A stretch of 64,000 nt of DNA from Omnitrophica WOR_2 bacterium RIFOXYA2_FULL_38_17 (GTDB lineage Bacteria; Omnitrophota; Gorgyraeia; Zapsychrales; Zapsychraceae): positions 1,384 to 65,383 of the forward strand of contig MHHG01000024.1 of NCBI GenBank assembly GCA_001805965.1, written 5' to 3'. The notes under the pieces were generated by a model. That model was not told where the DNA came from. It searched no databases and was given only the letters and a program-made list of their open reading frames with translations. Of this stretch, positions 307 to 19,360 are shown piece after piece. The first letter of the stretch is position 1; each line of letters starts with the position of its first letter. The position numbers were made by a program, and so were the translations under genes.

Positions 307-1413
307 ATGAAAAAAAAGATCTTGCATAATGTTTTTCTTTCGTCAATATCTCAAAATGTCGGAAAAACCACGATTGCTTTAGGGCTTTATCAAGCATTTA
401 ATGAAAGAAAGATAAGAACAGCGTTCATTAAGCCCGTTGGACAGCAGGTTGTCAATGTTGGTAATTCTAATATTGATAAAGATTCGTACTTGATCGGGGA
501 AGTTTTTCATTGTGCTAAGAATTTCAAAGAAATGAGCCCGGTAACGGTAGGGAGAGGTTTTACAGAAAAATATATTTTTCATCCACAAAAAAATATGCTC
601 AAAAATAATATTGAAAAAGCATTTAATGCTTTGATCAAAGCAAAAGATGCAATTATTGTTGAAGGGACCGGGCACTGTGGGGTTGGCTCTGTAATTGATT
701 TTTCAAATGCTGATGTTGCAAAATTACTTCATTCTAAGGTCATAATAATCAGTGAAGGCGGAATAGGAAAAAGTATTGATGAGATTATGCTGAACAAGGG
801 ATTGTTTGATCTTAACGGAGTTGAAGTTATGGGAGTGATCATCAATAAGGTTTTATCCGAAAAATATGAAAAGGTCAAAAGAGCCCTGGAAAGAGGATTG
901 AAGAACAAAGGCCTGAATTTGCTCGGGGTAATTCCTGATAGGCCTTTATTAAGTTCGCCTACGATCATGCAGATCAAGGATAAATATAAATTTGAATTAT
1001 TGTGCGGAGAAACTGAAGTCTCAAGACGTGTAAAGCATGTTATTGTCGCGGCCATGGAGCCACACAACATGGTTCATCATCTTGAAGACGGCACTTTGGT
1101 CCTTGTTTCCGGGGACCGAATTGATAATATATTACTAGCAGTAAGTTCGCACCTTGTAGGCAGTCAAAAGGATTTTCAGATCGCAGGTATTATTTTGACG
1201 GGAGGGCTGATGCCCAATGAAAAGATCGTTGATCTTCTCAGCAAAAGTAAAATACCTGTTTTGATAGACAAAGAAGACACGTATTCTGTTGCTGCAAAAC
1301 TTGAAAATTTAATATGTAAAATAGAAAAGACAGATAAAGACAAGATCGCGGAAATAGGACGGCTTGTAAAAAAATATGTTGATATAGACCAGATATTGGA
1401 ATTATCAAAATAA
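307..1413 (+). CDS. DRTGG-domain protein resembling the N-terminal BioD-like + DRTGG portion of phosphotransacetylase; no acetyltransferase domain
   Basis: ORF 235..1413 trimmed to the internal ATG at 307 (MKKKIL...). The VGKTTIALGL...FIKPVGQQ P-loop-like N-terminus and the later DRTGG-type region are recognised by eye. It ends 22 nt before the GAF-ANTAR gene. Confidence 0.5.
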   Translation: MKKKILHNVFLSSISQNVGKTTIALGLYQAFNERKIRTAFIKPVGQQVVNVGNSNIDKDSYLIGEVFHCAKNFKEMSPVTVGRGFTEKYIFHPQKNMLKNNIEKAFNALIKAKDAIIVEGTGHCGVGSVIDFSNADVAKLLHSKVIIISEGGIGKSIDEIMLNKGLFDLNGVEVMGVIINKVLSEKYEKVKRALERGLKNKGLNLLGVIPDRPLLSSPTIMQIKDKYKFELLCGETEVSRRVKHVIVAAMEPHNMVHHLEDGTLVLVSGDRIDNILLAVSSHLVGSQKDFQIAGIILTGGLMPNEKIVDLLSKSKIPVLIDKEDTYSVAAKLENLICKIEKTDKDKIAEIGRLVKKYVDIDQILELSK

Positions 1414-1435
1414 ATCTTGAAAGGGTGGAAAGTTA

Positions 1436-2671
1436 ATGGCGGACAATAAAAAGACCAGTACAACATTGGCTATAGGGCAAAAGCAAGAGCTCACTATCCT
1501 TAGGAAAATAGTAGAGCTGACAAATACAGAATTAGACCTTAAAAAAATATTAAATGAAACCGTAAAAGTCGTTTCTGAAATGACTAAGGCAGACTCCGTT
1601 TTTGTTTATCTTTTTGACGATGTTAAAAGAAGCTTTGTACTTATGGCATCAAAAACGCCTCATGCAAAAGAATTAGGTGAGGTTAATTTAAAAACAGGCG
1701 AAGGGATCACAGGTTGGGTTGCCAAACAAAATAAACCTGTTGTTATAAAGGAAATGGCTTTTGCAGACCCAAGATTCAAAAGCTTTGATGTTTTGCCTGA
1801 AGATAAATACGAGGCATTTCTGTCGGTACCGATAGTTTATAAAAACAAAGCAATAGGTGTAGTCAATGTCCAGCATAAAAAGCCTCATGATTATGCTCAG
1901 AACACAACCGAGTTGATATCTGTGATAGCAAAACAAATAGGCGGGGTCATTGAAAATGCCAGGCTTTATGAGGAGAAAAAGACCAAGGCTTTGCAGTTTG
2001 ATAGCCTGGTCAAAGTAAGCAAGTCGATCACATCCCAGGATTATTTAGATGAGATTTTAAGTCTTATAGTTGTTGTGACGGCAGAGATGCTTAATTCAAA
2101 AATATGCTCGATCATGCTGTTAGATAAAAAAGCCAAAGAGCTGATCATTAAGGCGACGCAAAGCCTGAGTGAAGAATATAAGAAAAAACCGAACATAAAA
2201 GTCAATGCAAGTATCAGTGGCGATGTTGTCAAAAGCAAGAAACCAATAGCTATCTATGATGTTCGTAATGAAAAGAAATATGCCTTTAGGGATATTGCAA
2301 TAAAGGAAAAGCTGACATCAATGCTGGCTGTTCCGATGATCGTGAAAAATAATGCAATAGGTATTATCAATATCTATACAAAAACGCCTCATTCCTTCTC
2401 CCAGGAAGAGATCGATGTGCTGCAGCTGGTAGCTAATCAGGCTGCAATAGCTATTGAAAATACTAAGCTGGTTGAGGACGCTGTTAAAGCAAAAGAAGCG
2501 CTTGAAACAAGGAAGGTAATTGAGAGAGCTAAAGGCATATTAATGAAAATGGGTAGCTTAAATGAGCAGGAGGCATATAAGCTAATACATAAGAAGAGCA
2601 TGGATTCATGTAAGCAAATGAAGGAAATTGCTGAATCTATTATCTTGATGGAAGAGTTGCAGCGACAATGA
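1436..2671 (+). CDS. GAF-GAF-ANTAR RNA-binding transcription antiterminator (paralog 1)
   Basis: 411 aa with two GAF-like blocks. The C-terminal ALETRKVIERAKGILMKMGSLNEQEAYKLIHKKSMD segment is a typical ANTAR helix bundle (AmiR/NasR/EutV-like). It is ~60% identical to the protein at 12988..14235. Confidence 0.8.
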   Translation: MADNKKTSTTLAIGQKQELTILRKIVELTNTELDLKKILNETVKVVSEMTKADSVFVYLFDDVKRSFVLMASKTPHAKELGEVNLKTGEGITGWVAKQNKPVVIKEMAFADPRFKSFDVLPEDKYEAFLSVPIVYKNKAIGVVNVQHKKPHDYAQNTTELISVIAKQIGGVIENARLYEEKKTKALQFDSLVKVSKSITSQDYLDEILSLIVVVTAEMLNSKICSIMLLDKKAKELIIKATQSLSEEYKKKPNIKVNASISGDVVKSKKPIAIYDVRNEKKYAFRDIAIKEKLTSMLAVPMIVKNNAIGIINIYTKTPHSFSQEEIDVLQLVANQAAIAIENTKLVEDAVKAKEALETRKVIERAKGILMKMGSLNEQEAYKLIHKKSMDSCKQMKEIAESIILMEELQRQ

Positions 2672-4209
2672 AATCATTTCTCTTAGCACACAAAGATAAT
2701 AAGTATGTTGTGCCGGCTGCGCTTTTAGTTTTCAGCTTTTTAATAAGAATGAGCTTGATCAGCAAAGGGCCGTATAGCCTCGATTCTTTAGCTGTAGTAA
2801 ATGCAGCACTTCAAACAATCAAAACCCACCAGATTCAATATTTCCACGAGTTTCAATATCCTTTAGCTGTTATTTTTCTTGTAGGATTTATAAACTTTTT
2901 TAGATTGTTTGCAGTTGATGACCCGGTATTTTTATATAACCTTATAAGCGTTGTGTTCAGCTCAATAAGCGTTGTGTTGTTTTATGTTTTGATCAAGCCT
3001 ATCCTAAATAAACCTGCGGCTTTTTTTACGGCTATTTTGTTTTCCTTATGTCCGATCTATTTAGGTTTATCTGTTTATGGAACAAGCAATATCTTAAGCT
3101 TGTTCTTTCTTTTTTTGTGCTTTGTGAGCATGAGCCAATATTTTTCGCTGCAAGACAACAAATATTATTTCATCAGCTCTTTTAGTTTAGGGCTGATGGC
3201 TGCAGCAAGGCTACAGGAAATGTTCTTTTTGTTACCTGCTGTTTTTTGTTTTTTTGTTTTTCCACCTTTTAAAAAAATCAGCGAAGATGGCTCCGAACAA
3301 ACCATTCCGGGGGGGAGCCTGAATGGTTTTGTACCATATCTTTTTCTTGCTTTTGCAGTAGGAGCGCTTTTTTATTTTCCGGCGCTTTTAAGATATATCA
3401 AGTCCCCTGAAACCCCTTTTCTTCTGGAGGTCTTGGCTGACAATGTTCCAAGGAGAGGTTTTATTCCTTTCTTTATAGGATCGCTGGTCAGAAATGTAGA
3501 GTTTATCAAAATGTCTTTTTCTTCAACTGGGCTTTTGCTTTCAGTTGTTGGTTTAGCATTAATGCTTTTTTCACATAGAAAAGCCTTGTCCCTATGCTTA
3601 GCCTGGATAATGGCCCCTTTATTCCTTTTGACTTGTTTTAGGATTACGGGGCCAAGGCTGCTTGTTTTGACTGTTCCAGCTTTTTATATAGGGCTGGGTT
3701 ATGTTATTTTTATACTTTTTCAAAAGAACAAATTAATGCGCTTAGCTGCTTTTGTGATATTTATCGGGATTATGTTCTCGAACTATTTAGCAATATACCC
3801 AATTTTATTACATAGGCATAATGCCGCTCTTTTGCCTGATTATGCAAGGAAGATCGGCGAGATTTCCAAGCCAAACGATGTGATCATATGTCACGACGAA
3901 GCCTTGTTTATACAATATTATGCAAAGCGCAAGACAATTTCGCGACCTTCCGAGAAGGATCTTTTTAGCAGGGAAGCTATGATGAAATTTAAAGATGAGA
4001 TCAGTGAAGTATTGGAGCAGGGAAACTCTGTTTATTTAACTTGGCCCGGGATGTTTGCATCTGGGCATCCACAAGTGCTGGAGTATTTAATGAATAAATA
4101 TTTTAAAGTTGAAGAAATCGGGATTATGCCATATGAGGATTGGCACAGAGGGCCTATTAGGCAGCAGCTTTACAATTTACCTATCTATCAATTAAAAAAA
4201 AAGAAATGA
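2668..4209 (+). CDS. Polytopic membrane protein, possibly a GT-C fold (ArnT/PMT-like) glycosyltransferase
   Basis: 513 aa with about 12 hydrophobic segments. The start overlaps the upstream stop (ATGA). The family assignment is tentative. Confidence 0.45.
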   Translation: MKSFLLAHKDNKYVVPAALLVFSFLIRMSLISKGPYSLDSLAVVNAALQTIKTHQIQYFHEFQYPLAVIFLVGFINFFRLFAVDDPVFLYNLISVVFSSISVVLFYVLIKPILNKPAAFFTAILFSLCPIYLGLSVYGTSNILSLFFLFLCFVSMSQYFSLQDNKYYFISSFSLGLMAAARLQEMFFLLPAVFCFFVFPPFKKISEDGSEQTIPGGSLNGFVPYLFLAFAVGALFYFPALLRYIKSPETPFLLEVLADNVPRRGFIPFFIGSLVRNVEFIKMSFSSTGLLLSVVGLALMLFSHRKALSLCLAWIMAPLFLLTCFRITGPRLLVLTVPAFYIGLGYVIFILFQKNKLMRLAAFVIFIGIMFSNYLAIYPILLHRHNAALLPDYARKIGEISKPNDVIICHDEALFIQYYAKRKTISRPSEKDLFSREAMMKFKDEISEVLEQGNSVYLTWPGMFASGHPQVLEYLMNKYFKVEEIGIMPYEDWHRGPIRQQLYNLPIYQLKKKK

Positions 4210-4325
4210 TTGCTCGAGAGTCAGAAAGGTATTATTTAAATATCAGTTGTAAAATGCTATTTTTGCTGGTTTAATTGTATAATTGAACAATCGGATGAAT
4301 CCTTTTAACAGGAACAGGTCTTTAA

Positions 4326-6509
4326 ATGAATAGATTTAGAAAGCTTTTAAATATAGTTCTTGGTGCTGTATTTTTTCTTTTGTTGTCAGCGCATGCCTTT
4401 GCTTCGTCCGGGCAAGCAGAAGGCGGAATAGTCGCAATAACCAGCTTGCTCGTGATCCAGTTAAGTGTAATATTATTTGCTGCTTGGGTTGGCAATCTTG
4501 CGTTCGCGAGGATGAAGCTGCCTGCAGTGCTCGGAGAGATCGTTGCCGGAGTTGTTATTGGCCCGTACTTTTTAGGGTCTTTTGGTTTTCCCGGTTTTGA
4601 ACATGGTCTTTTCCCGCCATCAGGTGATTTTCCAGTTTCAATAGAATTGTATAGCCTTGCAACAATAGCATCGATAATCTTATTGTTCTTTGTCGGACTT
4701 GAGACGGATATACAGACCTTTTTAAGATTTTCTTTTGCTGGCTCCATAGTTGGTGTTTTTGGTGTTATTTTTAGTTTTATAGCAGGCGATATTTTAGGTG
4801 TCATGTTAGCCCAAAACCTGATGGGGCAAAATTACAGTTTTACTCACCCGTTCTGTCTTTATCTGGGTGTTTTATCCACAGCTACTTCAGTTGGCATTAC
4901 TGCCCGTATTCTCTCAGAAAAAAGAAAAATGAATTCTCCCGAAGGGGTCACTATTCTAGCCGCAGCAGTTATTGATGATGTGTTGGGCATTATTATCCTC
5001 GCAATAATCCTTGGTATGGTAAAAAGTGGCCACATAGGATGGAAGGAAGTTTCCCTTATCTCCCTTAAAGCTTTTGGTATCTGGCTGGGATTTACCTTGG
5101 TGGGACTGAAATATTCTTTAAAGTTATCTGCTGTTCTTAACAAAATCAAAGACCAAAACACGATTGCTATATTAAGCCTTGGCCTTGCCTTGTTATTGGC
5201 GGGCATATTTGAGCATTTTGGTTTAGCGATGATCATAGGCGCTTATGTTATGGGGCTATCGTTATCTAAGACAGACCTTGCCTTTATTGTCCAAGAGAAG
5301 CTGGAAATGTTGCAGAAATTTTTAGTGCCAATCTTTTTTTGTGTAATGGGCATGCTGGTTAATTTAAAAGAAATGGCGTCATTGCAGATCATTAGTTTTG
5401 GAATGCTTTATGTTGTTATGGCAACTCTTGGCAAGATCATAGGGTGCAGCATTCCGGCATTATTCCTGAATTTTAATTTAAGGGGAGCTTTGCGTATTGG
5501 TGTTGGAATGGTCCCGAGAGGTGAAGTAGCTTTGATCATTGCAGGTATTGGGCTTTCTTCAGGGATCATTGATGATAAAGTTTTTAGCATTGTCATGATA
5601 ATGACATTTGTTACAACATTGATCACTCCTTTGGTCCTCGACAAGATGCTCGATTCAAAAAAGCCTGTTCTAAGGAAAGAGCAGGAGATCAAGGATGAAC
5701 AAAAGACGATAAAATATGAAATGCCAAGCGTGGAAACGGCAGAACTGCTTCTTGCTAAAGTTGTCACTGCATTTGAAAATGAGGGGTTTTTTGTTCACAG
5801 AATGGGTCGTGAAGAAAGGCTGTTTAAGATCAGAAAAGAAAGCGTCTTTATTGTCATGCGATACACTACACAAAGAATGGAATTTGATTGCAGCGAGATG
5901 GATGCGCCATTTATTCACACCTTGTTCTATGAAGTTATTGCGGAACTGGAGCATGCTATGCAGACATTGCAGACGTTAACAGACAAAAGTTCTATTGGTA
6001 AAAAGATATTTGATACACAAAAAATAATTGCAAATATCAATAGTGACAGAAAAAAGAAATTTCAGATCATTTCTTCCAAGGCCCTTAATGTTGATTTACA
6101 GGGCAGGTCAAAAGAAGAGATTCTTGCTGAACTTGTTGAGCTGTTAATAGAGTCAAAGCAATTAGACGCATCACAAAAAGAAGAAGTAGTTAAAGATCTT
6201 CTTAAAAGAGAGTTAATGATGTCGACTGGAATGCAAAATGGCATTGCGCTGCCTCATGCTAAAACAATAGCTGTGGACCATGTTGTTGCTGCAGTAGGCA
6301 TAAGCAAAGAGGGAGTGGATTTTGCATCTCTGGACAAAATACCATCTAAGATCTTTGTTTTAACTTTGGCCTCGAAAGAACACCCTCATGCATATTTACA
6401 GTCCATGTCGGAGATCAGCAGGTTTTTATCGAAAGAAGAGAACAGGGCGAAAATGATAGCGTGTACTACAAGAATACAATTGTTTGACGTGTTAAGCTTT
6501 CATATGTAA
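4326..6509 (+). CDS. Kef/CPA2-type cation:proton antiporter fused to a C-terminal PTS EIIA-Ntr (PtsN-like) domain
   Basis: 727 aa. A signal-like N-terminus is followed by about 12 TM helices of a Na+/H+ (K+/H+) exchanger fold. The C-terminal ~150 aa contain RELMMSTGMQNGIALPHAK, which matches the PtsN active-site region REKMGSTGIGNGIAIPHGK. Confidence 0.8.
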   Translation: MNRFRKLLNIVLGAVFFLLLSAHAFASSGQAEGGIVAITSLLVIQLSVILFAAWVGNLAFARMKLPAVLGEIVAGVVIGPYFLGSFGFPGFEHGLFPPSGDFPVSIELYSLATIASIILLFFVGLETDIQTFLRFSFAGSIVGVFGVIFSFIAGDILGVMLAQNLMGQNYSFTHPFCLYLGVLSTATSVGITARILSEKRKMNSPEGVTILAAAVIDDVLGIIILAIILGMVKSGHIGWKEVSLISLKAFGIWLGFTLVGLKYSLKLSAVLNKIKDQNTIAILSLGLALLLAGIFEHFGLAMIIGAYVMGLSLSKTDLAFIVQEKLEMLQKFLVPIFFCVMGMLVNLKEMASLQIISFGMLYVVMATLGKIIGCSIPALFLNFNLRGALRIGVGMVPRGEVALIIAGIGLSSGIIDDKVFSIVMIMTFVTTLITPLVLDKMLDSKKPVLRKEQEIKDEQKTIKYEMPSVETAELLLAKVVTAFENEGFFVHRMGREERLFKIRKESVFIVMRYTTQRMEFDCSEMDAPFIHTLFYEVIAELEHAMQTLQTLTDKSSIGKKIFDTQKIIANINSDRKKKFQIISSKALNVDLQGRSKEEILAELVELLIESKQLDASQKEEVVKDLLKRELMMSTGMQNGIALPHAKTIAVDHVVAAVGISKEGVDFASLDKIPSKIFVLTLASKEHPHAYLQSMSEISRFLSKEENRAKMIACTTRIQLFDVLSFHM

Positions 6510-6527: not shown

Positions 6528-6556
6528 TTGACAAAATGTTTTATCTGTTGTATAGT
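6528..6556 (+). promoter_or_regulatory. Sigma-70-like promoter for the amt1 leader (TTGACA-17-TATAGT)
   Basis: TTGACA at 6528-6533, a 17-nt spacer, TATAGT at 6551-6556. Confidence 0.55.
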
Positions 6557-6580
6557 TTGTCTAGTTAAAGGGCACAGTGG

Positions 6581-6616
6581 TTCTCTTGAATCGACGGAGA
6601 TTCAGGGGGATTTTTT
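6581..6616 (+). terminator. Leader hairpin + U-tract (first attenuator-like element of amt1 leader)
   Basis: CTCTTGAATC-gacgga-GATTCAGGGGG followed by TTTTTT. Confidence 0.4.
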
Positions 6617-6666
6617 ATTGTAGAAATGATCTTAATTTAAGGTTTATTTAAGACAGGTAAAATAGC

Positions 6667-6717
6667 GGACGCAGATGTCCTCTTTCGGGCATAGTTGCTT
6701 GAAAGGGGATTTTTTTA
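6667..6717 (+). promoter_or_regulatory. ANTAR-target-like hairpin GGAC-gcagat-GTCC overlapping the 5' arm of an intrinsic terminator (attenuator 2 of amt1 leader)
   Basis: GGAC 6667-6670, hexaloop, GTCC 6677-6680. The terminator is GTCCTCTTTC...GAAAGGGGA followed by TTTTTTT (6711-6717). Confidence 0.6.
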
Positions 6718-6718
6718 T

Positions 6719-6777
6719 GGACAAGGTTGTCCTCTTTAGAACAGTTGTCAAACAACGGTTTTGAAGAGGACTTTTTT
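6719..6777 (+). promoter_or_regulatory. ANTAR-target hairpin GGAC-aaggtt-GTCC overlapping a terminator (attenuator 3 of amt1 leader)
   Basis: The hexaloop AAGGTT has A1/G4. The terminator is GTCCTCTT...AAGAGGAC (perfect 8 bp) followed by TTTTTT (6772-6777). Confidence 0.65.
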
Positions 6778-6824
6778 ATAGATGGAAGGTTAATTGCAAA
6801 TCAATAAATATAAGAGGAGGGAAT

Positions 6825-8553: not shown

Positions 8554-8581
8554 TTGACAAATTTGAGATTAATGCTATATT
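8554..8581 (+). promoter_or_regulatory. Sigma-70-like promoter for the amt2 leader (TTGACA-16-TATATT)
   Basis: TTGACA 8554-8559, TATATT 8576-8581. Confidence 0.5.
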
Positions 8582-8595
8582 TATTTCAAATTTAA

Positions 8596-8650
8596 GGGCA
8601 ATGAAGTCCTCCATAGAAACAGCAGTGATGTTTTTGTGGGGGACTTTTTT
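8596..8650 (+). promoter_or_regulatory. ANTAR-target-like hairpin GGGC-aatgaa-GTCC overlapping a terminator (attenuator 1 of amt2 leader)
   Basis: Loop A1/G4. The terminator is GTCCTCCA...TGGGGGAC followed by TTTTTT (8645-8650). Confidence 0.6.
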
Positions 8651-8678
8651 ATTGCGGAAAACAAAGATGTTTTCAAGA

Positions 8679-8699
8679 TTTTCTGATTAGATCAGAAAA
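8679..8699 (+). promoter_or_regulatory. Perfect 9-bp hairpin with a triloop (TTTTCTGAT-tag-ATCAGAAAA), no U-tract
   Basis: Seen directly. It sits between the two amt2 attenuators, 3 nt upstream of the next GGAC hairpin. Confidence 0.4.
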
Positions 8700-8702
8700 C
8701 AA

Positions 8703-8765
8703 GGACAAAGAAGTCCTCTCGCAGAAGAATGAAGTTTTGTTCTTTAGCCAGAGGTCTTTTTTTTA
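8703..8765 (+). promoter_or_regulatory. ANTAR-target hairpin GGAC-aaagaa-GTCC overlapping a terminator (attenuator 2 of amt2 leader)
   Basis: GGAC 8703-8706, GTCC 8713-8716. The terminator is GTCCTCT...AGAGGTC followed by a 9-T run (8757-8765). Confidence 0.6.
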
Positions 8766-8790
8766 ACAAAACACAGAAAGGAAATTAACA

Positions 8791-10125
8791 ATGAAGTTAT
8801 TCCGCATGTTAGGTTCTTTGATCACTGCAGCTGCTGTATCTTTGTTTTATGCTGTATCTTGTTTTGCAGGGGAAAATGGAGTTATTGATTCTGGAGCTAC
8901 TGCATGGATGTTGACATCAACGGCTTTGGTGCTTTTAATGGTCCCTGGGCTGGCTATGTTCTATGGTGGATTGGTTAGAACAAAGAATGTTCTTGGCACA
9001 ATGATGCACAGTTTTGTTTCTATAGCGATTATTGGTGTGTTGTGGACAATATTTGGGTATTCGTTATCTTTTGGACATAGTATTTTGGGCGGTTTTCTTG
9101 GTTGGAATCCTGATTATTTCTTCTTAAAAGGTATTGATGAAAGTATTGTTAATGGGGTTCCTGAATATGTATTAGCTATGTTTCAAGGTAAATTTGCGAT
9201 CATAACTCCTGCATTAATAGCAGGTGCACTTGCTGAGAGGGTTTATTTTAGAGGGTATTGTCTTTTTATAGCTCTTTGGTTCCTATTTGTTTATTGTCCT
9301 TTAGCTCACTGGGTCTGGGCTTCTGATGGGTGGCTCTTTAATGCTGGCGCTAGAGGTGTGATCGATCTGGCTGGAGGAACGGTAATTCATGTTTCAGCCG
9401 GAGTAAGTGCATTGGTCGTTTCCTTGTTTCTTGGAAAAAGAAAAGGTTATCCTGAAACAGTAGTAATGCCAAATAATCTGGTTATGACAATGATCGGAGC
9501 AGGATTACTATGGGTAGGCTGGTTTGGTTTTAATGCAGGCTCAACAGTGCATAGCGGGTTAGATACTGCCCGGGCGCTTACAATGACTCAGATTTCGGCA
9601 TCAAGTGGTGCTGTTACTTGGCTTGTTCTAGAAGCCATTATTTTTAAGAAGGCAACTTCTCTGGGCTTTGTGTCAGGAATTTTAGCAGGTTTGGTGGTAA
9701 TAACGCCTGCGGCAGGAGTTGTGCTTCCGTCGGGGGCTCTTATCTTGGGAATGTTATCATCAATCGCTTGTTATTTTGCACTAAAAATGAAAGCAAAATT
9801 TGGTTATGATGATAGTCTTGATTGTTTTGGTATCCATGGAGTTGGAAGTGGATTGGGAGTGCTAATGCTGTCTTTTTTTATAAGGGGAAGTTGGATGGCA
9901 GAGGCTTCAGCGGCTATCGGTACAAGATGGACGAACGTTGATCAATTTTTTATTCAGCTAAAAGGATTAAGTGCAACAATTGTATTAGCGGCTTTGGGTA
10001 CTTTGATAATTAGTTTTGTTGTAGAAAACACAATAGGTTTTAGATTAGGAAAAGCAAAAGAAATGGCAGGGATGGATCATTCTTTGCATGGTGAGCATGG
10101 ATATGGGATGTTGAATGTAAACTAA
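8791..10125 (+). CDS. amtB: Ammonium transporter Amt (copy 2, divergent)
   Basis: 444 aa with a signal peptide. Amt blocks are present (…GALAERV…, …WVGWFGFNAGS…, …HGVGSGLG…). Confidence 0.9.
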   Translation: MKLFRMLGSLITAAAVSLFYAVSCFAGENGVIDSGATAWMLTSTALVLLMVPGLAMFYGGLVRTKNVLGTMMHSFVSIAIIGVLWTIFGYSLSFGHSILGGFLGWNPDYFFLKGIDESIVNGVPEYVLAMFQGKFAIITPALIAGALAERVYFRGYCLFIALWFLFVYCPLAHWVWASDGWLFNAGARGVIDLAGGTVIHVSAGVSALVVSLFLGKRKGYPETVVMPNNLVMTMIGAGLLWVGWFGFNAGSTVHSGLDTARALTMTQISASSGAVTWLVLEAIIFKKATSLGFVSGILAGLVVITPAAGVVLPSGALILGMLSSIACYFALKMKAKFGYDDSLDCFGIHGVGSGLGVLMLSFFIRGSWMAEASAAIGTRWTNVDQFFIQLKGLSATIVLAALGTLIISFVVENTIGFRLGKAKEMAGMDHSLHGEHGYGMLNVN

Positions 10126-12856: not shown

Positions 12857-12904
12857 TGGCAAAGTTGTCCGGAACTCATAGTAATGTGGGTCCGGGTTTT
12901 TTTT
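12857..12904 (+). promoter_or_regulatory. ANTAR-target-like hairpin (T)GGC-aaagtt-GTCC overlapping a terminator (TCCGGA...TCCGGG, then T8)
   Basis: Loop A1/G4, U-tract 12897-12904. It lies in the leader of the ANTAR paralog 2 gene. Confidence 0.5.
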
Positions 12905-12922
12905 GTGTAAGATATTTATTTT

Positions 12923-12972
12923 GGGCAAAGATGTCCTCATTCAATGAAGATATAATTGGGTGGGGCTTTTTT
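12923..12972 (+). promoter_or_regulatory. ANTAR-target-like hairpin GGGC-aaagat-GTCC followed by a weaker terminator-like hairpin/U-tract
   Basis: GGGC 12923-12926, GTCC 12933-12936, then ...GGGTGGGGC followed by TTTTTT (12966-12972). The downstream stem needs G-U pairs. Confidence 0.45.
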
Positions 12973-12987
12973 ATTGCAAAGGAAAAT

Positions 12988-14235
12988 ATGATGGCCGAAA
13001 AAAAGATCAGAAAGTTGCATATTAGTCAAGTGATGGAGAATAAACTCTTGCGTAAGATCGTTGAAATAACCAATTCTGAACTGGGCCTAGAAAAAGTTCT
13101 GAAAGAAACAGTTAATATTATCACAGAGGTTACAAAGGCAGACTCCGTGTTTATCTATTTACTTGATAATACAAAAAAACAGTTATCCTTGATGGCCTCG
13201 AAGACTCCTCATCAAAAAGAGATAGGACAGCTTAATTTAAAAGCAGGTGAAGGCATTGCAGGATGGGTCTTTAGCAACTCTTCCCTGGTGGCGATCGCAG
13301 AAAATGCTTATAAAGATGAACGTTTTAAAAGTTTTGATGTTTTGCCAGAAGATAAATATGAAGCCCTGTTATCTGTGCCAATTATCAATAAAGGTAAAGC
13401 TGTAGGCGTCGTGAATATCCAGAACAAAAGAAAACATGACTATAGTGAAAAGACGATAGATCTTATTTCTTTGATCGTAAAGCAAATTGAGGGTGTTTTA
13501 GAAAATGCTCGACTATATGAAGAAGCAAAGAAGAAAGCAGTACAATTTGATAACTTGATGAAGGTCAGTAATTCAATAACGTCAAAGAATTATCTTGAGG
13601 AGATCTTAAGTCTTATTGTGGTTGTTACGGCAGAGATTCTTAGCTCAAAGATATGTTCAATTATGCTTGTAGATAAAACGGGTAAAGAGCTAGAAATAAA
13701 GGCTACGCAAAGCCTTAGTGAACATTACAGGACAAAACCTAATTTAAAGATAGGTTCATGTATCAGCGGAGATGTTATAAGATCAAAAAAACCAATTGCG
13801 ATCTTTGATGTTCGGGAAGAAAAAAGATATTCATTTAGGGGTCTGGCAATAAAAGAAAAATTAACATCAATGTTATGTGTTCCAATGGTTGTGAAAGAGC
13901 AGGCAATTGGTTTGATAAATGTATATACGGAGAAGAAACACGAATTTACAAAAGAAGAGATTGATGTTTTGCAGATGGTGGCTAATCAGGCGGCAGTTGT
14001 TGTTGAGAATACAAAGTTAGTAGAAGAATCTATAAAGGCAAAAGAAGCATTAGAAACAAGAAAAATAATAGAAAAAGCAAAGGGCCTTTTGATGCAAATT
14101 AGATCTCTTAATGAAGATGATGCTTATAAAATGATATTGAAGAAGAGCATGGATTCTAGAAAATCTATGAAAGAAGTGTCAGAATCAATTTTATTAATGA
14201 GTGAATTTAAGAGTGAAGGGGTAAATTTGCAGTAG
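12988..14235 (+). CDS. GAF-GAF-ANTAR RNA-binding transcription antiterminator (paralog 2)
   Basis: ORF 12865 trimmed to MMAEKK at 12988. The upstream part overlaps the leader hairpins and has no match to paralog 1. The C-terminal ANTAR is ALETRKIIEKAKGLLMQIRSLNEDDAYKMILKKSMD. Confidence 0.8.
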   Translation: MMAEKKIRKLHISQVMENKLLRKIVEITNSELGLEKVLKETVNIITEVTKADSVFIYLLDNTKKQLSLMASKTPHQKEIGQLNLKAGEGIAGWVFSNSSLVAIAENAYKDERFKSFDVLPEDKYEALLSVPIINKGKAVGVVNIQNKRKHDYSEKTIDLISLIVKQIEGVLENARLYEEAKKKAVQFDNLMKVSNSITSKNYLEEILSLIVVVTAEILSSKICSIMLVDKTGKELEIKATQSLSEHYRTKPNLKIGSCISGDVIRSKKPIAIFDVREEKRYSFRGLAIKEKLTSMLCVPMVVKEQAIGLINVYTEKKHEFTKEEIDVLQMVANQAAVVVENTKLVEESIKAKEALETRKIIEKAKGLLMQIRSLNEDDAYKMILKKSMDSRKSMKEVSESILLMSEFKSEGVNLQ

Positions 14236-14347: not shown

Positions 14348-14429
14348 ATTTTAACAGAGCGCAGATTGTTCTTAATAGACTATGTTGTCAGTAAAATCAA
14401 ATATAAGACATAATATGAAAGGAAACGAA

Positions 14430-15221
14430 ATGAATAAGAATTTAATTAAAAGCTTGTTGGTTCTTTTGACAGTTTTAGTTACACCGATGTTTCAAACGAA
14501 TGCCGAATCTTCAACAGTATTAGGGGATTACTTGGCAAGTAAAGATGTGGAAATAGCAGTTTCTGCTAACATTGATTATTACGATAAATATGTCTGGAGA
14601 GGATTTCTCCTGGATGGCGATAATGTTATGCAATCAGGAGTTACGCTTTCTTCAAAAGGTTTTGAGGGAGGCTTCTGGGGAAGCTGGGACCTTCAGTCTG
14701 AAGATGGATTAGCCTCTGATGAAGTAGATGGATTCATTGGTTATGGTTTTGGTCTTGGTTTTTTAAATGATGCACTTGAGAAAATCACAGTGTCCTTAGG
14801 TCATACATGGTATGGATTTCCTGAAGCTGACCTTTATTCTAAAGAATTTTATTTAGGATTTGCAGTAGACACGTTCTTGTCTCCATATTTTACATGGTAT
14901 AAGGATTATGAAGATGAGGAGCAAGGTGGTGCTGATGGCAACTATTTTATGGCAGGGATCGGCCATAGTTTTAATATTAGTGAAGAGTATGGCGTTACCC
15001 TTGATTTAGGGTTGGAATATGGATTTAACGATAACGCTTTTATTGATGGAAAAGGTCATTATGCTTTGTCTAAAGTAGGCGTTACTATTCCGCTAACTGA
15101 AAAAATCTCTATGAGCCCTGTTATTGCTTACAGTGTTCCATTTGGCGATCTAGCAAATGGCGGGGGAAATGACCAAAAAGAACAGTTTTATGGGGGTGTT
15201 TCACTTGCGTTTAATTTTTAA
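14430..15221 (+). CDS. Predicted outer-membrane beta-barrel (porin-like) protein with signal peptide and C-terminal Phe
   Basis: ORF 14382 trimmed to the ATG at 14430, which follows the RBS AAGGAAA. It has alternating amphipathic Gly/aromatic-rich strands and ends ...LAFNF. It lies directly upstream of amt3. Confidence 0.6.
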   Translation: MNKNLIKSLLVLLTVLVTPMFQTNAESSTVLGDYLASKDVEIAVSANIDYYDKYVWRGFLLDGDNVMQSGVTLSSKGFEGGFWGSWDLQSEDGLASDEVDGFIGYGFGLGFLNDALEKITVSLGHTWYGFPEADLYSKEFYLGFAVDTFLSPYFTWYKDYEDEEQGGADGNYFMAGIGHSFNISEEYGVTLDLGLEYGFNDNAFIDGKGHYALSKVGVTIPLTEKISMSPVIAYSVPFGDLANGGGNDQKEQFYGGVSLAFNF

Positions 15222-17101: not shown

Positions 17102-19360
17102 ATGCAAAATTCAGATAAAGATAATATAAAGCTGATATGCGATATCAGTGAGCTTAGCAATCTTTTCACAGATTCCAACAGTTTAGAGAATTTTTTATCT
17201 AAAACTGTTGAGATGGTTGCCAGCCATATGAAAGCGGATGTTTGCTCGATCTACCTTTACTCCGATGGGACGCAGGAGTTGATTTTAAAAGCGACAATGG
17301 GATTAAATCAAGGTCTTATCGGGAATGTTAAGATGAATGTTGATGAAGGCTTAACTGGATTAGCTCTAAAAGAGCTTCGGCCGATTTGTGAGAGAAATGC
17401 GAGCAGGAACCCTAATTTTAAATATTTTCCTGATCTAGGTGAAGAAATCTATGAGTCTTTTCTTGCTGTGCCTATATTGCGGGGAACAAATAAAGTAGGA
17501 GTTATGGTAATTCAAAACTCTGAAAAGAATTATTTTAAAGAAGGAGATGTAACTGTTTTACAAGCAATTACTTCTCAGCTTGCAAATACAATAGAGATGG
17601 CAAGGTTTTTACTGTCTCTTGATGAAGATAGACAGCAAAAGAAAGTAATTAAAGAGGAAGGTGACCTGAAATTTGTTAAGGGAAGAGTTGGCTCGCCGGG
17701 CTTTGTTTTTGCTGAAGCAGTTGTTCTTTTAGAGAGTAATTCTTTATGGCTCAATCAAGCAGTAGTTCAAGAGCACACCGTAGATGATTTCTATAAGGCA
17801 TTAAAAGATTCGGAACATCAGCTGGAAGATATGCAGACGCAGATAGAAGAAACATTAGCTGATATTGCTTCGTTCATATTTAACGCTCAAATATTGATGC
17901 TGAAAGATTCTATATTTGTTAACGCTATGGTTGATAAAATTAAAAAAGGCATAAAACCTCATGCTGCAATAATCGAGGTTGCTGGTAATTATTTGAAGAA
18001 ATTTGACAATATTGCAGATGAATATCTGAAAGACAGAAGCCAGGATGTTAAAGATATATGTAGAAGGATTTTAAGTAATCTTATCGGGTTTGATGTTAAT
18101 GCCACAAATTGTGAAGGCCGTATTTTAATTGCTAAGGAACTCTCTGCGGGCGATGTTTTAAAATATTCTTCAGAGAAAGTAAAGGGCATAATCCTTTTAA
18201 GCGGAGGGGTCACTTCGCATGTTTGCATTCTTGCAAGTTCGTTGCAGTTGCCGGTTATAATAGCTGATGAGCCCCGACTGATGTCTATAAGGAACAATAC
18301 TAGAGTTTTGATGGATGCTGAAATTGGGAATTTATATATCAATCCGACAGATGATATTATTGAATCGTTTAGAGAAAAGCAGAAGCTATTGAAAACAAGC
18401 GCTGAAATTAGTAGCGAATTAAAAGAAAAGACTTTTACCGCAGATGGCTCCCAAGTCCATTTGTTGGCAAACATTAATTTATTAGGAGACCTGAAAATAG
18501 CAAAACACTATAAAGCGGAAGGTGTCGGGCTCTACAGGACAGAGTTTCCGTTTATAGTTAGAAAAGATTTTCCTTCGGAGGAAGAGCAGTTAGTTGTCTA
18601 TAAGAAATTATTCGAAGGTATGCCTGGCAAGGAGATGACGATACGCACTCTTGATATAGGAGGAGACAAGGTCTTATCATATTTTCAAGAACATTCACGC
18701 GAGAAAAATCCATTTATGGGCATGAGGTCAGTAAGGTTCTCTTTAAGGCATAAAGATATTTTTGCTCAACAAATAAGGGCTATCTTGAGAGCAAGCGTAG
18801 GTGCTGATGTTAAAATAATGTTCCCTATGATATCTTCTGTAGATGAGTTTGTAGAGGCAAAGCAATTGGTGTTGAATTGTGTTAGTGAGCTTAGAAGTTC
18901 TGGTGCAGAATTTCAGGTAAATCCAACGATAGGCATGATGATAGAAATGCCTTCAGTAATGGAAATTTTAGAAGAACTGGCAAATTATTCTGATTTTTTC
19001 AGCATAGGTACAAATGATTTTGTTCAATATATGCTTGCAGTAGACAGGACAAATGAAAGGGTTGCAGATATGTATTTATCGCACCACCCATCCATTTTGC
19101 GTGCAATTAAAAAAGTAGTGGATGTGTCTGCTAAGTATGGTAAAGAGGTCTCTGTTTGTGGTGAGATGGCACATGAAGAAAAATATATAAGATATTTACT
19201 GGGTATTGGAGTCAGAAGATTTAGCTTGAGCCCTTCCTATATACCGAAAATACAAAGAGCTATCATGAATGTTCAAATAAAAGATGCAGAAGCGTTTGCC
19301 AAAGAAATTCTTTCAATGGATAAATTGACAGACATATCAAAAAAAATTGGAATAAGTTAG
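17102..19360 (+). CDS. ptsP: Phosphoenolpyruvate-protein phosphotransferase PtsP (EI-Ntr, N-terminal GAF domain)
   Basis: 752 aa with a GAF N-terminus. It carries the EI phosphohistidine region GGVTSHVCILASSLQLPVI and the PEP-utilising C-terminal domain (…NDFVQYMLAVDR…). Confidence 0.85.
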   Translation: MQNSDKDNIKLICDISELSNLFTDSNSLENFLSKTVEMVASHMKADVCSIYLYSDGTQELILKATMGLNQGLIGNVKMNVDEGLTGLALKELRPICERNASRNPNFKYFPDLGEEIYESFLAVPILRGTNKVGVMVIQNSEKNYFKEGDVTVLQAITSQLANTIEMARFLLSLDEDRQQKKVIKEEGDLKFVKGRVGSPGFVFAEAVVLLESNSLWLNQAVVQEHTVDDFYKALKDSEHQLEDMQTQIEETLADIASFIFNAQILMLKDSIFVNAMVDKIKKGIKPHAAIIEVAGNYLKKFDNIADEYLKDRSQDVKDICRRILSNLIGFDVNATNCEGRILIAKELSAGDVLKYSSEKVKGIILLSGGVTSHVCILASSLQLPVIIADEPRLMSIRNNTRVLMDAEIGNLYINPTDDIIESFREKQKLLKTSAEISSELKEKTFTADGSQVHLLANINLLGDLKIAKHYKAEGVGLYRTEFPFIVRKDFPSEEEQLVVYKKLFEGMPGKEMTIRTLDIGGDKVLSYFQEHSREKNPFMGMRSVRFSLRHKDIFAQQIRAILRASVGADVKIMFPMISSVDEFVEAKQLVLNCVSELRSSGAEFQVNPTIGMMIEMPSVMEILEELANYSDFFSIGTNDFVQYMLAVDRTNERVADMYLSHHPSILRAIKKVVDVSAKYGKEVSVCGEMAHEEKYIRYLLGIGVRRFSLSPSYIPKIQRAIMNVQIKDAEAFAKEILSMDKLTDISKKIGIS

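Follow-up and report, generated by a model that had tools for sequence, protein, structure and literature searches.

In Escherichia coli, the K+/H+ antiporter YcgO is inhibited when the enzyme IIA (EIIA) protein PtsN, in its unphosphorylated form, attaches to the cytoplasmic C-terminal region of the transporter (PMC11808508; reviewed in PMC13104625). Through this region the antiporter responds to the phosphorylation state of PtsN, and PtsP and NPr, the upstream components of the nitrogen phosphotransferase system (PTS-Ntr), determine that state (PMC11808508, PMC13104625). In KefC, the cytoplasmic RCK domains inhibit transport by touching the transporter module (PMC11150392). Kef proteins of the cation:proton antiporter 2 (CPA2) group carry "QD" in place of "DD", and their Thr127 (Val in NapA) binds dehydrated K+ (PMC11150392). 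The phylogeny of the cation:proton antiporters (CPA) ties an Asp at motif position 6 and a Lys at position 8 to electrogenic transport (PMC6181914), and "DD" together with the Lys of transmembrane (TM) helices 10/11 (CPA-motif positions 6, 7 and 8) marks the electrogenic CPA2 clades (PMC6181914, PMC11150392). Here we describe a gene that joins an antiporter and an EIIA domain in one reading frame. It lies at 4326-6509 (+ strand) of a 64,000-nucleotide stretch of the genome of Omnitrophica WOR_2 bacterium RIFOXYA2_FULL_38_17 (contig MHHG01000024.1), hereafter the window, and its 727-amino-acid (aa) product consists of a NapA-type CPA2 antiporter, a middle domain and an EIIA domain. We think it reasonably likely that this cation/proton antiporter is switched in cis by the phosphorylation state of its C-terminal EIIA, a reading that the YcgO-PtsN and KefC-RCK precedents support.

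A preliminary description of the window had proposed that the open reading frame at 4326-6509 fuses an antiporter to an EIIA domain, and had named the Pfam models with which its two ends could be searched. Both models matched: Na_H_Exchanger covers aa 50-438 (E 1.6e-52), PTS_EIIA_2 covers aa 581-724 (E 2.3e-27), and Pfam reports nothing for aa 440-580 between the two domains. A 100% identical public protein exists (HBG61205.1, "sodium:proton exchanger", Candidatus Omnitrophota), and the identical protein was present on 9 contigs from several independent sources, the longest of 822 kb. More than 100 full-length homologues contained both Na_H_Exchanger and PTS_EIIA_2; among the best 120 homologues (52-100% identity), a 608-aa entry was the single one that did not carry both domains. 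We also scanned one genome per species and detected relatives in at least 497 species genomes from several phyla, the best 80 of which span the query to about residue 720. An assembly or frameshift artefact joining two separate genes was therefore rejected, given the uninterrupted reading frame, the 9 contigs and the relatives in other species, and also because the junction region is a conserved folded domain in its own right; we found no point in favour of such an artefact and regard it as next to impossible. The fusion is real, as the preliminary description had supposed. The AlphaFold2 model of the full-length protein had a mean pLDDT of 82.6. Its N-terminus is a hydrophobic helix or signal-peptide-like segment ending in ...AHAFA/S (4326-4406, aa 1-27, with a modelled helix at 2-21), which is poorly conserved in the consensus of the family alignment.

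The membrane domain (4428-5654, aa 35-443) was identified by Pfam, phmmer, Foldseek and the AlphaFold2 model as a 13-helix NapA-type antiporter with two discontinuous helices. Its best solved relatives in the phmmer search against the PDB were the Thermus thermophilus NapA structures 5bz2 and 4bwz (E 1e-45), compared to an E-value of 1e-6 for KefC. Superposition of the model on NapA 4bwz with Foldseek gave a TM-score of 0.89, a root-mean-square deviation of 2.6 Å and 32% identity, against a TM-score of 0.56 for KefC. The helix breaks of the model fall at TATSVG and PRGE. According to the NapA alignment, T187/S188 are equivalent to NapA T126/S127, D217/D218 to D156/D157, K370 to K305, and R398/E400 to R331/E333. 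In particular, the unwound-helix segment TATSVG (4878-4895) includes T187, S188 and V189, the last of which is Val in NapA and occupies the position of KefC Thr127; D217-D218 form the "DD" ion-binding and proton-carrier motif (4974-4979); K370 (5433-5435) corresponds to the Lys that forms a salt bridge with the first Asp and marks electrogenic transport; and the PRGE motif (5514-5525) belongs to the second discontinuous helix. S188, V189, D218, K370, R398 and E400 were kept in 83/83 family sequences, and T187 and D217 in 80/83 each. In the fusion proteins of three related loci (L049, L053 and L079), the DD motif reads GD or VD, whereas the other transport residues and the EIIA His are kept; the coupling stoichiometry or function of these proteins may be altered.

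The preliminary description had called the transporter Kef/CPA2-type. The CPA2 assignment stands, but the membrane domain is NapA-type and not Kef-type: it has DD and Val189 instead of QD and Thr127, it has no RCK/KTN domain, and it reached only 42 and 40 bits with the NCBIfam KefB and KefC models, whose cutoffs are 804 and 752. The 13-TM fold with two discontinuous helices, together with DD and the Lys, is that of the NapA-type electrogenic CPA2 antiporters. Since DD, Lys and Val occur here with no RCK domain, an electrogenic NapA-like Na+(Li+)/H+ antiporter is the best prediction, and to judge from these residues transport is most likely electrogenic with Na+(Li+)/H+ as substrate. The K+/H+ half of the earlier proposal of a K+/H+ or Na+/H+ exchanger is not established.

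The PTS_EIIA_2 domain (6066-6497, aa 581-724) scored 96-100 bits with PF00359 (cutoff 27) and covered 141 of the 144 profile positions, and its sole sequence matches in the PDB were the PtsN structures 4gqx, 3urr, 2a0j and 1a6j (E 1e-10 to 1e-6). In the alignments with these structures, His644 (6255-6257) is the predicted phospho-acceptor and falls on the PH of the PtsN motif GxAxPH. The motif that had been quoted earlier for the phospho-acceptor region, RELMMSTGMQNGIALPHAK, is indeed present in the product. R628 and E629 (6207-6212), 16 residues upstream of His644, complete the alignment on the PtsN active-site motif RE..GSTG.G.G.A.PH. All four residues H644, P643, R628 and E629 were found in 82/82 sequences with an intact C-terminus (44-100% identity, several phyla), and the retention of the His and the upstream Arg-Glu in every sequence argues for selection on phosphotransfer. 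Two related loci encoded proteins of about 900 aa (L060:3262-5958 and L073:9944-12637) in which the antiporter and middle domain are followed by a tandem pair of PTS_EIIA_2 domains, each with the PH motif.

The domain had been described as PtsN (EIIA-Ntr). Its membership in PTS_EIIA_2 was confirmed, but orthology to PtsN was not: the PtsN equivalog model TIGR01419 gave 56.7 bits (cutoff 138.7) and PRK10896 37.8 bits (cutoff 221), and the FruA-IIA domain model of NCBIfam gave 85.9 bits (cutoff 103.5). Moreover, a PtsN orthologue would be expected as a free protein of about 150-160 aa whose gene accompanies rpoN, hpf and ptsO; the domain described here is fused, and no rpoN or ptsO neighbour was identified within the 64-kb window. 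Free EIIA proteins of the same phyla were also under the PtsN cutoff, the best of them (L027:20450, 96.2 bits) being more PtsN-like than the fused domain, and the PtsN equivalog models may simply be out of reach of these lineages. As the equivalog cutoffs were missed and the phosphotransfer residues are intact, we filed the domain as PTS_EIIA_2 and not as a PtsN orthologue. These sub-cutoff scores would also suit an EIIA that serves as a regulatory, scaffolding or ligand-binding module without phosphorylation, like the cytoplasmic domain of Band 3/SLC4, with control of the antiporter outside the PTS; in Pfam, aa 587-637 also resemble Band_3_cyto weakly (E 0.01-0.14), which points the same way, as does the large share of loci with no PTS gene nearby. 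Such a module would not explain why the His, its preceding Pro and the upstream Arg-Glu are invariant across several phyla, why the PH motif is kept in both copies of the double-EIIA variants, or why EI (enzyme I) and HPr are encoded nearby in several lineages, and we consider it rather improbable.

The preliminary description had placed between the two Pfam domains a linker of about 150 aa with no motif and no RCK/KTN character. The second part of this statement was correct, but most of the supposed linker is a folded domain. We found a family-specific middle domain (5700-5978, aa 459-551) with a conserved MPNPET loop and no Pfam family, modelled with a pLDDT of ~83 within the full-length protein and 85.6 alone. 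Its topology in the AlphaFold2 model is beta (459-465)-alpha (469-485)-beta-beta-beta-beta-long alpha (524-551), antiparallel and not Rossmann. Conservation in the family alignment was strong across aa ~462-560, with the consensus ...MPNPETAEL..KVI.AFE.EGFYVH...LYQIRK...FITL.Y......FDC...D..F.HTLFYEVIAELE..MK.LQ.LTDK. The true flexible linker is a Lys-rich, disordered segment of 23 aa (5994-6062, aa 557-579), with a pLDDT below 50, poor conservation and no alignment consensus. Pfam gave zero matches for aa 432-577 even at E<=1, including CorC_HlyC and TrkA_C, and Foldseek against the PDB gave only generic two-layer alpha/beta matches with a TM-score of ~0.5 (spermine synthase N-domain, KA1 domains, BamC-N). 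Identity with RCK/KTN, TrkA_C or CorC_HlyC was thus rejected, as none of them appeared among the top 50 fold matches either. The beta-loop-helix start and the MPNPET loop had suggested a degenerate HPr; this candidate was also discarded, since the comparison with an HPr alignment in hhalign gave a probability of 2.4% and the Foldseek matches included no HPr.

A profile search with the middle domain in 1.84 billion cluster representatives recovered 205 proteins, 102 of them at E<=1e-10, and all 205 had the same architecture or were fragments thereof; the middle domain is specific to the antiporter-EIIA architecture. The full-length matches were either ~700-740 aa long with the domain at ~445-570, or ~870-906 aa long, the longer form being the one with the tandem EIIA pair (L060 and L073). 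A split form of the system, with stand-alone proteins made of the middle domain and EIIA, was considered, but most of the short matches (~280-300 aa) begin within the last TM helix and are fragments; two proteins, P0165 and P0129, might be genuine stand-alone proteins of this kind. A further protein of 1000 aa (P0184) carried an additional N-terminal region of ~280 aa, apparently extracytoplasmic, before the antiporter, middle domain and EIIA.

The fusion, whose taxonomic spread the preliminary description had left as a check, occurs in several phyla. Among the best 80 relatives we found Omnitrophota, Elusimicrobiota, Auribacterota, metagenome-assembled genomes labelled as PVC group or Planctomycetota (including Ca. 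Anammoxibacter), Verrucomicrobiota, Spirochaetota (Oceanispirochaeta, Treponema and Spirochaeta), KSB1 and Wallbacteria. We compared the gene context of 82 related loci with that of the window, counting neighbours within 10 kb at the 49 loci that offered 12 kb of flank or more. Nitrogen-assimilation genes were present at 8/49 loci, HPr together with EI at 7/49, and either of the two at 14/49; an EI-like gene was found in 13/82 loci. Assumption-free clustering of the neighbours revealed no universal neighbour. On a neighbour-joining tree of the fusion proteins, the nitrogen contexts fell into about 5-6 separate clades (window/L003/L067; L024/L002/L001/L031; L023; L055; L066; L035), several of which had a GAF-ANTAR gene 1-2 kb upstream of the fusion gene. 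The HPr-EI context was confined to one clade, in which HPr and EI precede the fusion gene by 6-8 kb, the EI has 578 aa and no GAF domain, and the HPr (PF00381) contains both the His15 and the Ser46 motifs. In 12 loci of this clade a phosphofructokinase (PFK) gene was immediately upstream of the fusion gene, and downstream of it were genes for fructose-bisphosphate (FBP) aldolase II, a Na/Pi cotransporter-PhoU protein and an HD-domain protein. The whole order HPr, EI, gap, PFK, fusion, gap, FBP aldolase II, Na/Pi cotransporter-PhoU, HD-domain protein was seen at L033, L035, L039, L041, L043, L045 and L048 (~1000-3500 and ~8900-9900).

The recurring theme of these contexts is the PTS phosphorelay with central carbon or nitrogen metabolism. 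Since nitrogen genes accompany the fusion in some lineages and HPr, EI and PFK in another, the conserved link is with the PTS phosphorelay generally and not with nitrogen alone. The coupling to the nitrogen PTS that had been proposed for the window consequently fits the window itself, with its nitrogen and PtsP neighbourhood, but does not extend to the family, in which nitrogen genes (8/49) are about as frequent as HPr with a non-GAF EI (7/49). Genomes that bear the fusion also encoded free EIIA (L010, L027) and EIIA proteins with an HTH_17 domain, and the occurrence of both in the same genomes points to a regulatory PTS with several outputs. One HTH_17 (excisionase-type)-EIIA_2 gene (L059:181-891, in a spirochaete) is directly upstream of the fusion gene (885-3086), and another is at L027:1851-2555. 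The HTH_17-EIIA proteins suggest a second, transcriptional output of the same phosphorelay.

In the window, the genes from 235 to ~29500 are all on the + strand and form one nitrogen-assimilation cluster. Their order is AAA_26/DRTGG, GAF-GAF-ANTAR (1436-2671), a PMT_2-like membrane protein, the fusion gene, two Amt-PII pairs, glutamine synthetase (GS) type III, a second GAF-GAF-ANTAR (12865-14235), a 279-aa protein, a third Amt-PII pair, a GAF-containing EI (GAF-EI), NadE, a Glu_synthase-like protein and GltB. The GAF-EI gene (17102-19360), 10.6 kb downstream of the fusion gene, had been described as PtsP in the same nitrogen cluster, and our results agree with this: Pfam recognised GAF (aa 26-165), PEP-utilisers_N, the mobile domain and PEP-utilizers_C, TIGR01417 gave 493 bits (cutoff 341.7), which places it in the EI family, and aa 21-748 aligned end to end with the PtsP model PRK11061 (positions 11-730 of 748). 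The window thus contains an EI with an N-terminal GAF domain, as expected of PTS-Ntr, and this protein is probably the first enzyme of the phosphorelay feeding the EIIA domain in this genome. Two other genes of the cluster were conserved elsewhere. The AAA_26 and DRTGG protein at its head (235-1413) showed a weak, sub-threshold match to the N-terminal domain of HPr kinase, and its synteny with GAF-ANTAR and the fusion gene is kept in L003 and L067. The 279-aa protein (14382-15221; also L023:11338) has no Pfam family and is encoded directly upstream of an Amt-PII pair in both the window and this one related locus. Its signal peptide, its aromatic and Gly-rich sequence suggestive of beta structure and its C-terminal ...LAFNF give it the look of an outer-membrane beta-barrel, and it may be an ammonium-related porin.

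The 117-nt leader of the fusion gene contains a consensus TATAAT -10 box (4278-4283), a possible promoter of its own. A terminator scan of 4210-4325 found no hairpin, and none lies between the TATAAT box and the ATG. The first two Amt leaders are different: that of Amt1 (6528-6778) has a predicted near-consensus sigma-70 promoter (6528-6556) followed by three tandem intrinsic-terminator hairpins, and that of Amt2 (8554-8766) a similar promoter (8554-8581) followed by two. Most of these hairpins have arms of the GTCCTC...GAGGAC type and then a T run. No Rfam family matched the fusion leader or the Amt leaders. The terminators, together with two GAF-GAF-ANTAR proteins in the same cluster, have the look of a nitrogen-responsive antitermination regulon, and the leader pattern would be compatible with a role of both GAF-ANTAR proteins as antiterminators. 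For the fusion gene itself we rejected control by ANTAR or by a riboswitch, as its leader has no Rfam match and no terminator, unlike the Amt leaders; the gene seems to be transcribed as a separate unit next to the nitrogen regulon.

This cluster bears on the question of the transported ion. K+- and NH4+-carrying members of CPA2 exist, for example AmhT of Bacillus. A transporter that in this lineage moved NH4+, or K+ as the glutamate counter-ion, instead of Na+, for instance as an efflux valve set by nitrogen status, would fit a fusion gene that heads a cluster with three Amt-PII pairs, GS-III, glutamate synthase and GAF-EI, as well as the nitrogen neighbourhoods of about 5-6 clades. The ion site argues for Na+, however, since its DD, its Lys and the Val found where KefC has Thr127 are those of NapA and differ from the K+-selective QD/Thr of Kef, and the nitrogen association is missing at most loci and replaced by glycolysis and PTS genes in one clade; within the window, too, the fusion gene is apparently transcribed on its own and has no Amt-type leader. 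An NH4+ or K+ carrier is thus unlikely here.

We return to the proposal that phosphorylation of the EIIA domain switches the antiporter in cis. Beside the domain architecture, the intact catalytic and ion-binding residues, the conservation of the family and the nearby EI (HPr and EI in other clades), which were all observed, we infer four elements: that His644 is phosphorylated, in which direction this acts, which ion is carried and that the middle domain serves as an adaptor. The phosphoryl group would pass from phosphoenolpyruvate (PEP) to EI, from there to HPr or NPr, and finally to His644, and in the window genome the EI would be the GAF-containing, PtsP-type protein at 17102-19360. In Proteobacteria the GAF domain of PtsP responds to glutamine and 2-oxoglutarate; with an EI of this kind, nitrogen status could set the switch in the window genome. 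In the clade with HPr, EI and PFK the switch would more likely read glycolytic flux, by way of the PEP:pyruvate ratio and of HPr Ser46. The middle domain, which follows the last TM helix directly, would act as an adaptor that relays the state of the EIIA to the transporter by docking on the moving core domain or being released from it, by analogy with the RCK domains of KefC and the C-terminal region of YcgO. As an outcome, Na+/H+ (or K+/H+) exchange, cytoplasmic pH, the sodium cycle and ion balance would be tied to PEP and nitrogen status.

Several observations weigh against this proposal. No HPr or NPr gene was found in the 64-kb window by phmmer or by Pfam on small open reading frames, and ~70% of the well-flanked loci had neither PTS nor nitrogen genes within 10 kb. 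The EIIA domain stays below both the PtsN and the FruA equivalog cutoffs, and the first Asp of the DD motif is replaced by Gly or Val in three relatives. The residues of the ion site do not give a certain substrate, and K+ or NH4+ would also be compatible with them. Finally, the lack of terminator hairpins in its leader leaves the fusion gene visibly outside the ANTAR-controlled nitrogen regulon.

Signalling could also run in the opposite direction, the ion- or pH-dependent state of the membrane domain controlling how readily the EIIA accepts a phosphoryl group and thereby draining or sparing HPr~P for other EIIA outputs. PTS phosphotransfer steps are reversible, several EIIA outputs in the same genomes would draw on a shared supply of HPr~P, and in L059 the fusion gene adjoins one that encodes an HTH-EIIA protein. 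We give this scheme little credence, since the strict conservation of the transport residues implies a working transporter and not a dedicated sensor, and since the precedents of PtsN with YcgO, TrkA and KdpD all run from EIIA to transporter.

A more complete picture can also be drawn, which we consider somewhat less likely than not. The domain of ~95 aa would be a mechanical coupler through which the PTS phospho-His gates the elevator movement of a NapA-type transporter. The protein would then be the first single-polypeptide PTS-gated ion transporter, and a regulatory PTS without permease would set Na+/H+ exchange, and with it pH and the sodium motive force, according to PEP and nitrogen status in ~500 species, mostly of uncultured phyla plus some spirochaetes. 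We found no description of an antiporter-EIIA fusion in the searchable literature, although it may have been mentioned earlier, and neither the 2024 YcgO-PtsN paper (PMC11808508) nor the 2026 PTS-Ntr review (PMC13104625) mentions one. Automatic annotation already shows both Pfam domains, and the JGI name is "KefB/mannitol-fructose-specific IIA".

Regulatory PTS control of cation transport has so far been described through transient protein contacts that are hard to define, and the models for TrkA, KdpD and YcgO are partly in conflict. A covalent fusion fixes the partners at 1:1 and so offers a compact system for measuring directly, and resolving structurally, what phosphorylation of an EIIA does to an antiporter. 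With it, the coupling between PTS and ion transport, so far tied to Proteobacteria and to K+ systems, reaches Omnitrophota, Elusimicrobiota, PVC-group bacteria and Spirochaetota as well as an exchanger of the NapA type (probably Na+/H+), and a small domain that Pfam does not cover is newly defined. The fusion brings together a CPA antiporter bearing a cytoplasmic regulatory tail and the control of cation transport by EIIA, both of them known principles, in a new covalent form and with a new adaptor domain.

Compared with known systems, the membrane part is closest to T. thermophilus NapA, a CPA2 electrogenic Na+/H+ antiporter (4bwz, 5bz2), with which it shares the 13-helix fold, the TS of the unwound helix, DD, the Lys (NapA K305) and the Arg and Glu (NapA R331/E333). 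NapA has no cytoplasmic regulatory tail, whereas the fusion adds an N-terminal hydrophobic segment, the middle domain, the linker and EIIA. The pairing of an EIIA_2-family protein with a cation/proton antiporter resembles PtsN with YcgO/CvrA of E. coli (and with TrkA and KdpD), and PtsN proteins are the only solved sequence relatives of the fused EIIA. Regulation in E. coli acts in trans and here would act in cis; in addition, YcgO is a CPA1 protein with RCK_C and CorC domains, in contrast to a NapA-type CPA2 with an unrelated middle domain. E. coli KefC and KefB are likewise CPA2 transporters with a covalent cytoplasmic domain, which in KefC is regulatory (PMC11150392), but KefC is K+-selective (QD and Thr127), electroneutral and glutathione-gated through RCK, and the fusion has DD and Val and neither a Rossmann nor an RCK domain. 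The HTH_17-EIIA proteins and the EIIA domains of PRD-type regulators also attach EIIA_2 to a non-PTS effector as a phospho-switch, a role predicted for the domain described here, in which the effector is an ion transporter and not a DNA-binding domain. Finally, the eukaryotic anion exchanger Band 3/SLC4 is another membrane exchanger with a cytoplasmic domain of the EIIA fold class, with weak Band_3_cyto similarity in Pfam; the Band 3 domain is N-terminal, is not phosphorylated on a PTS His and serves as a scaffold, whereas the fusion keeps invariant PTS catalytic residues.

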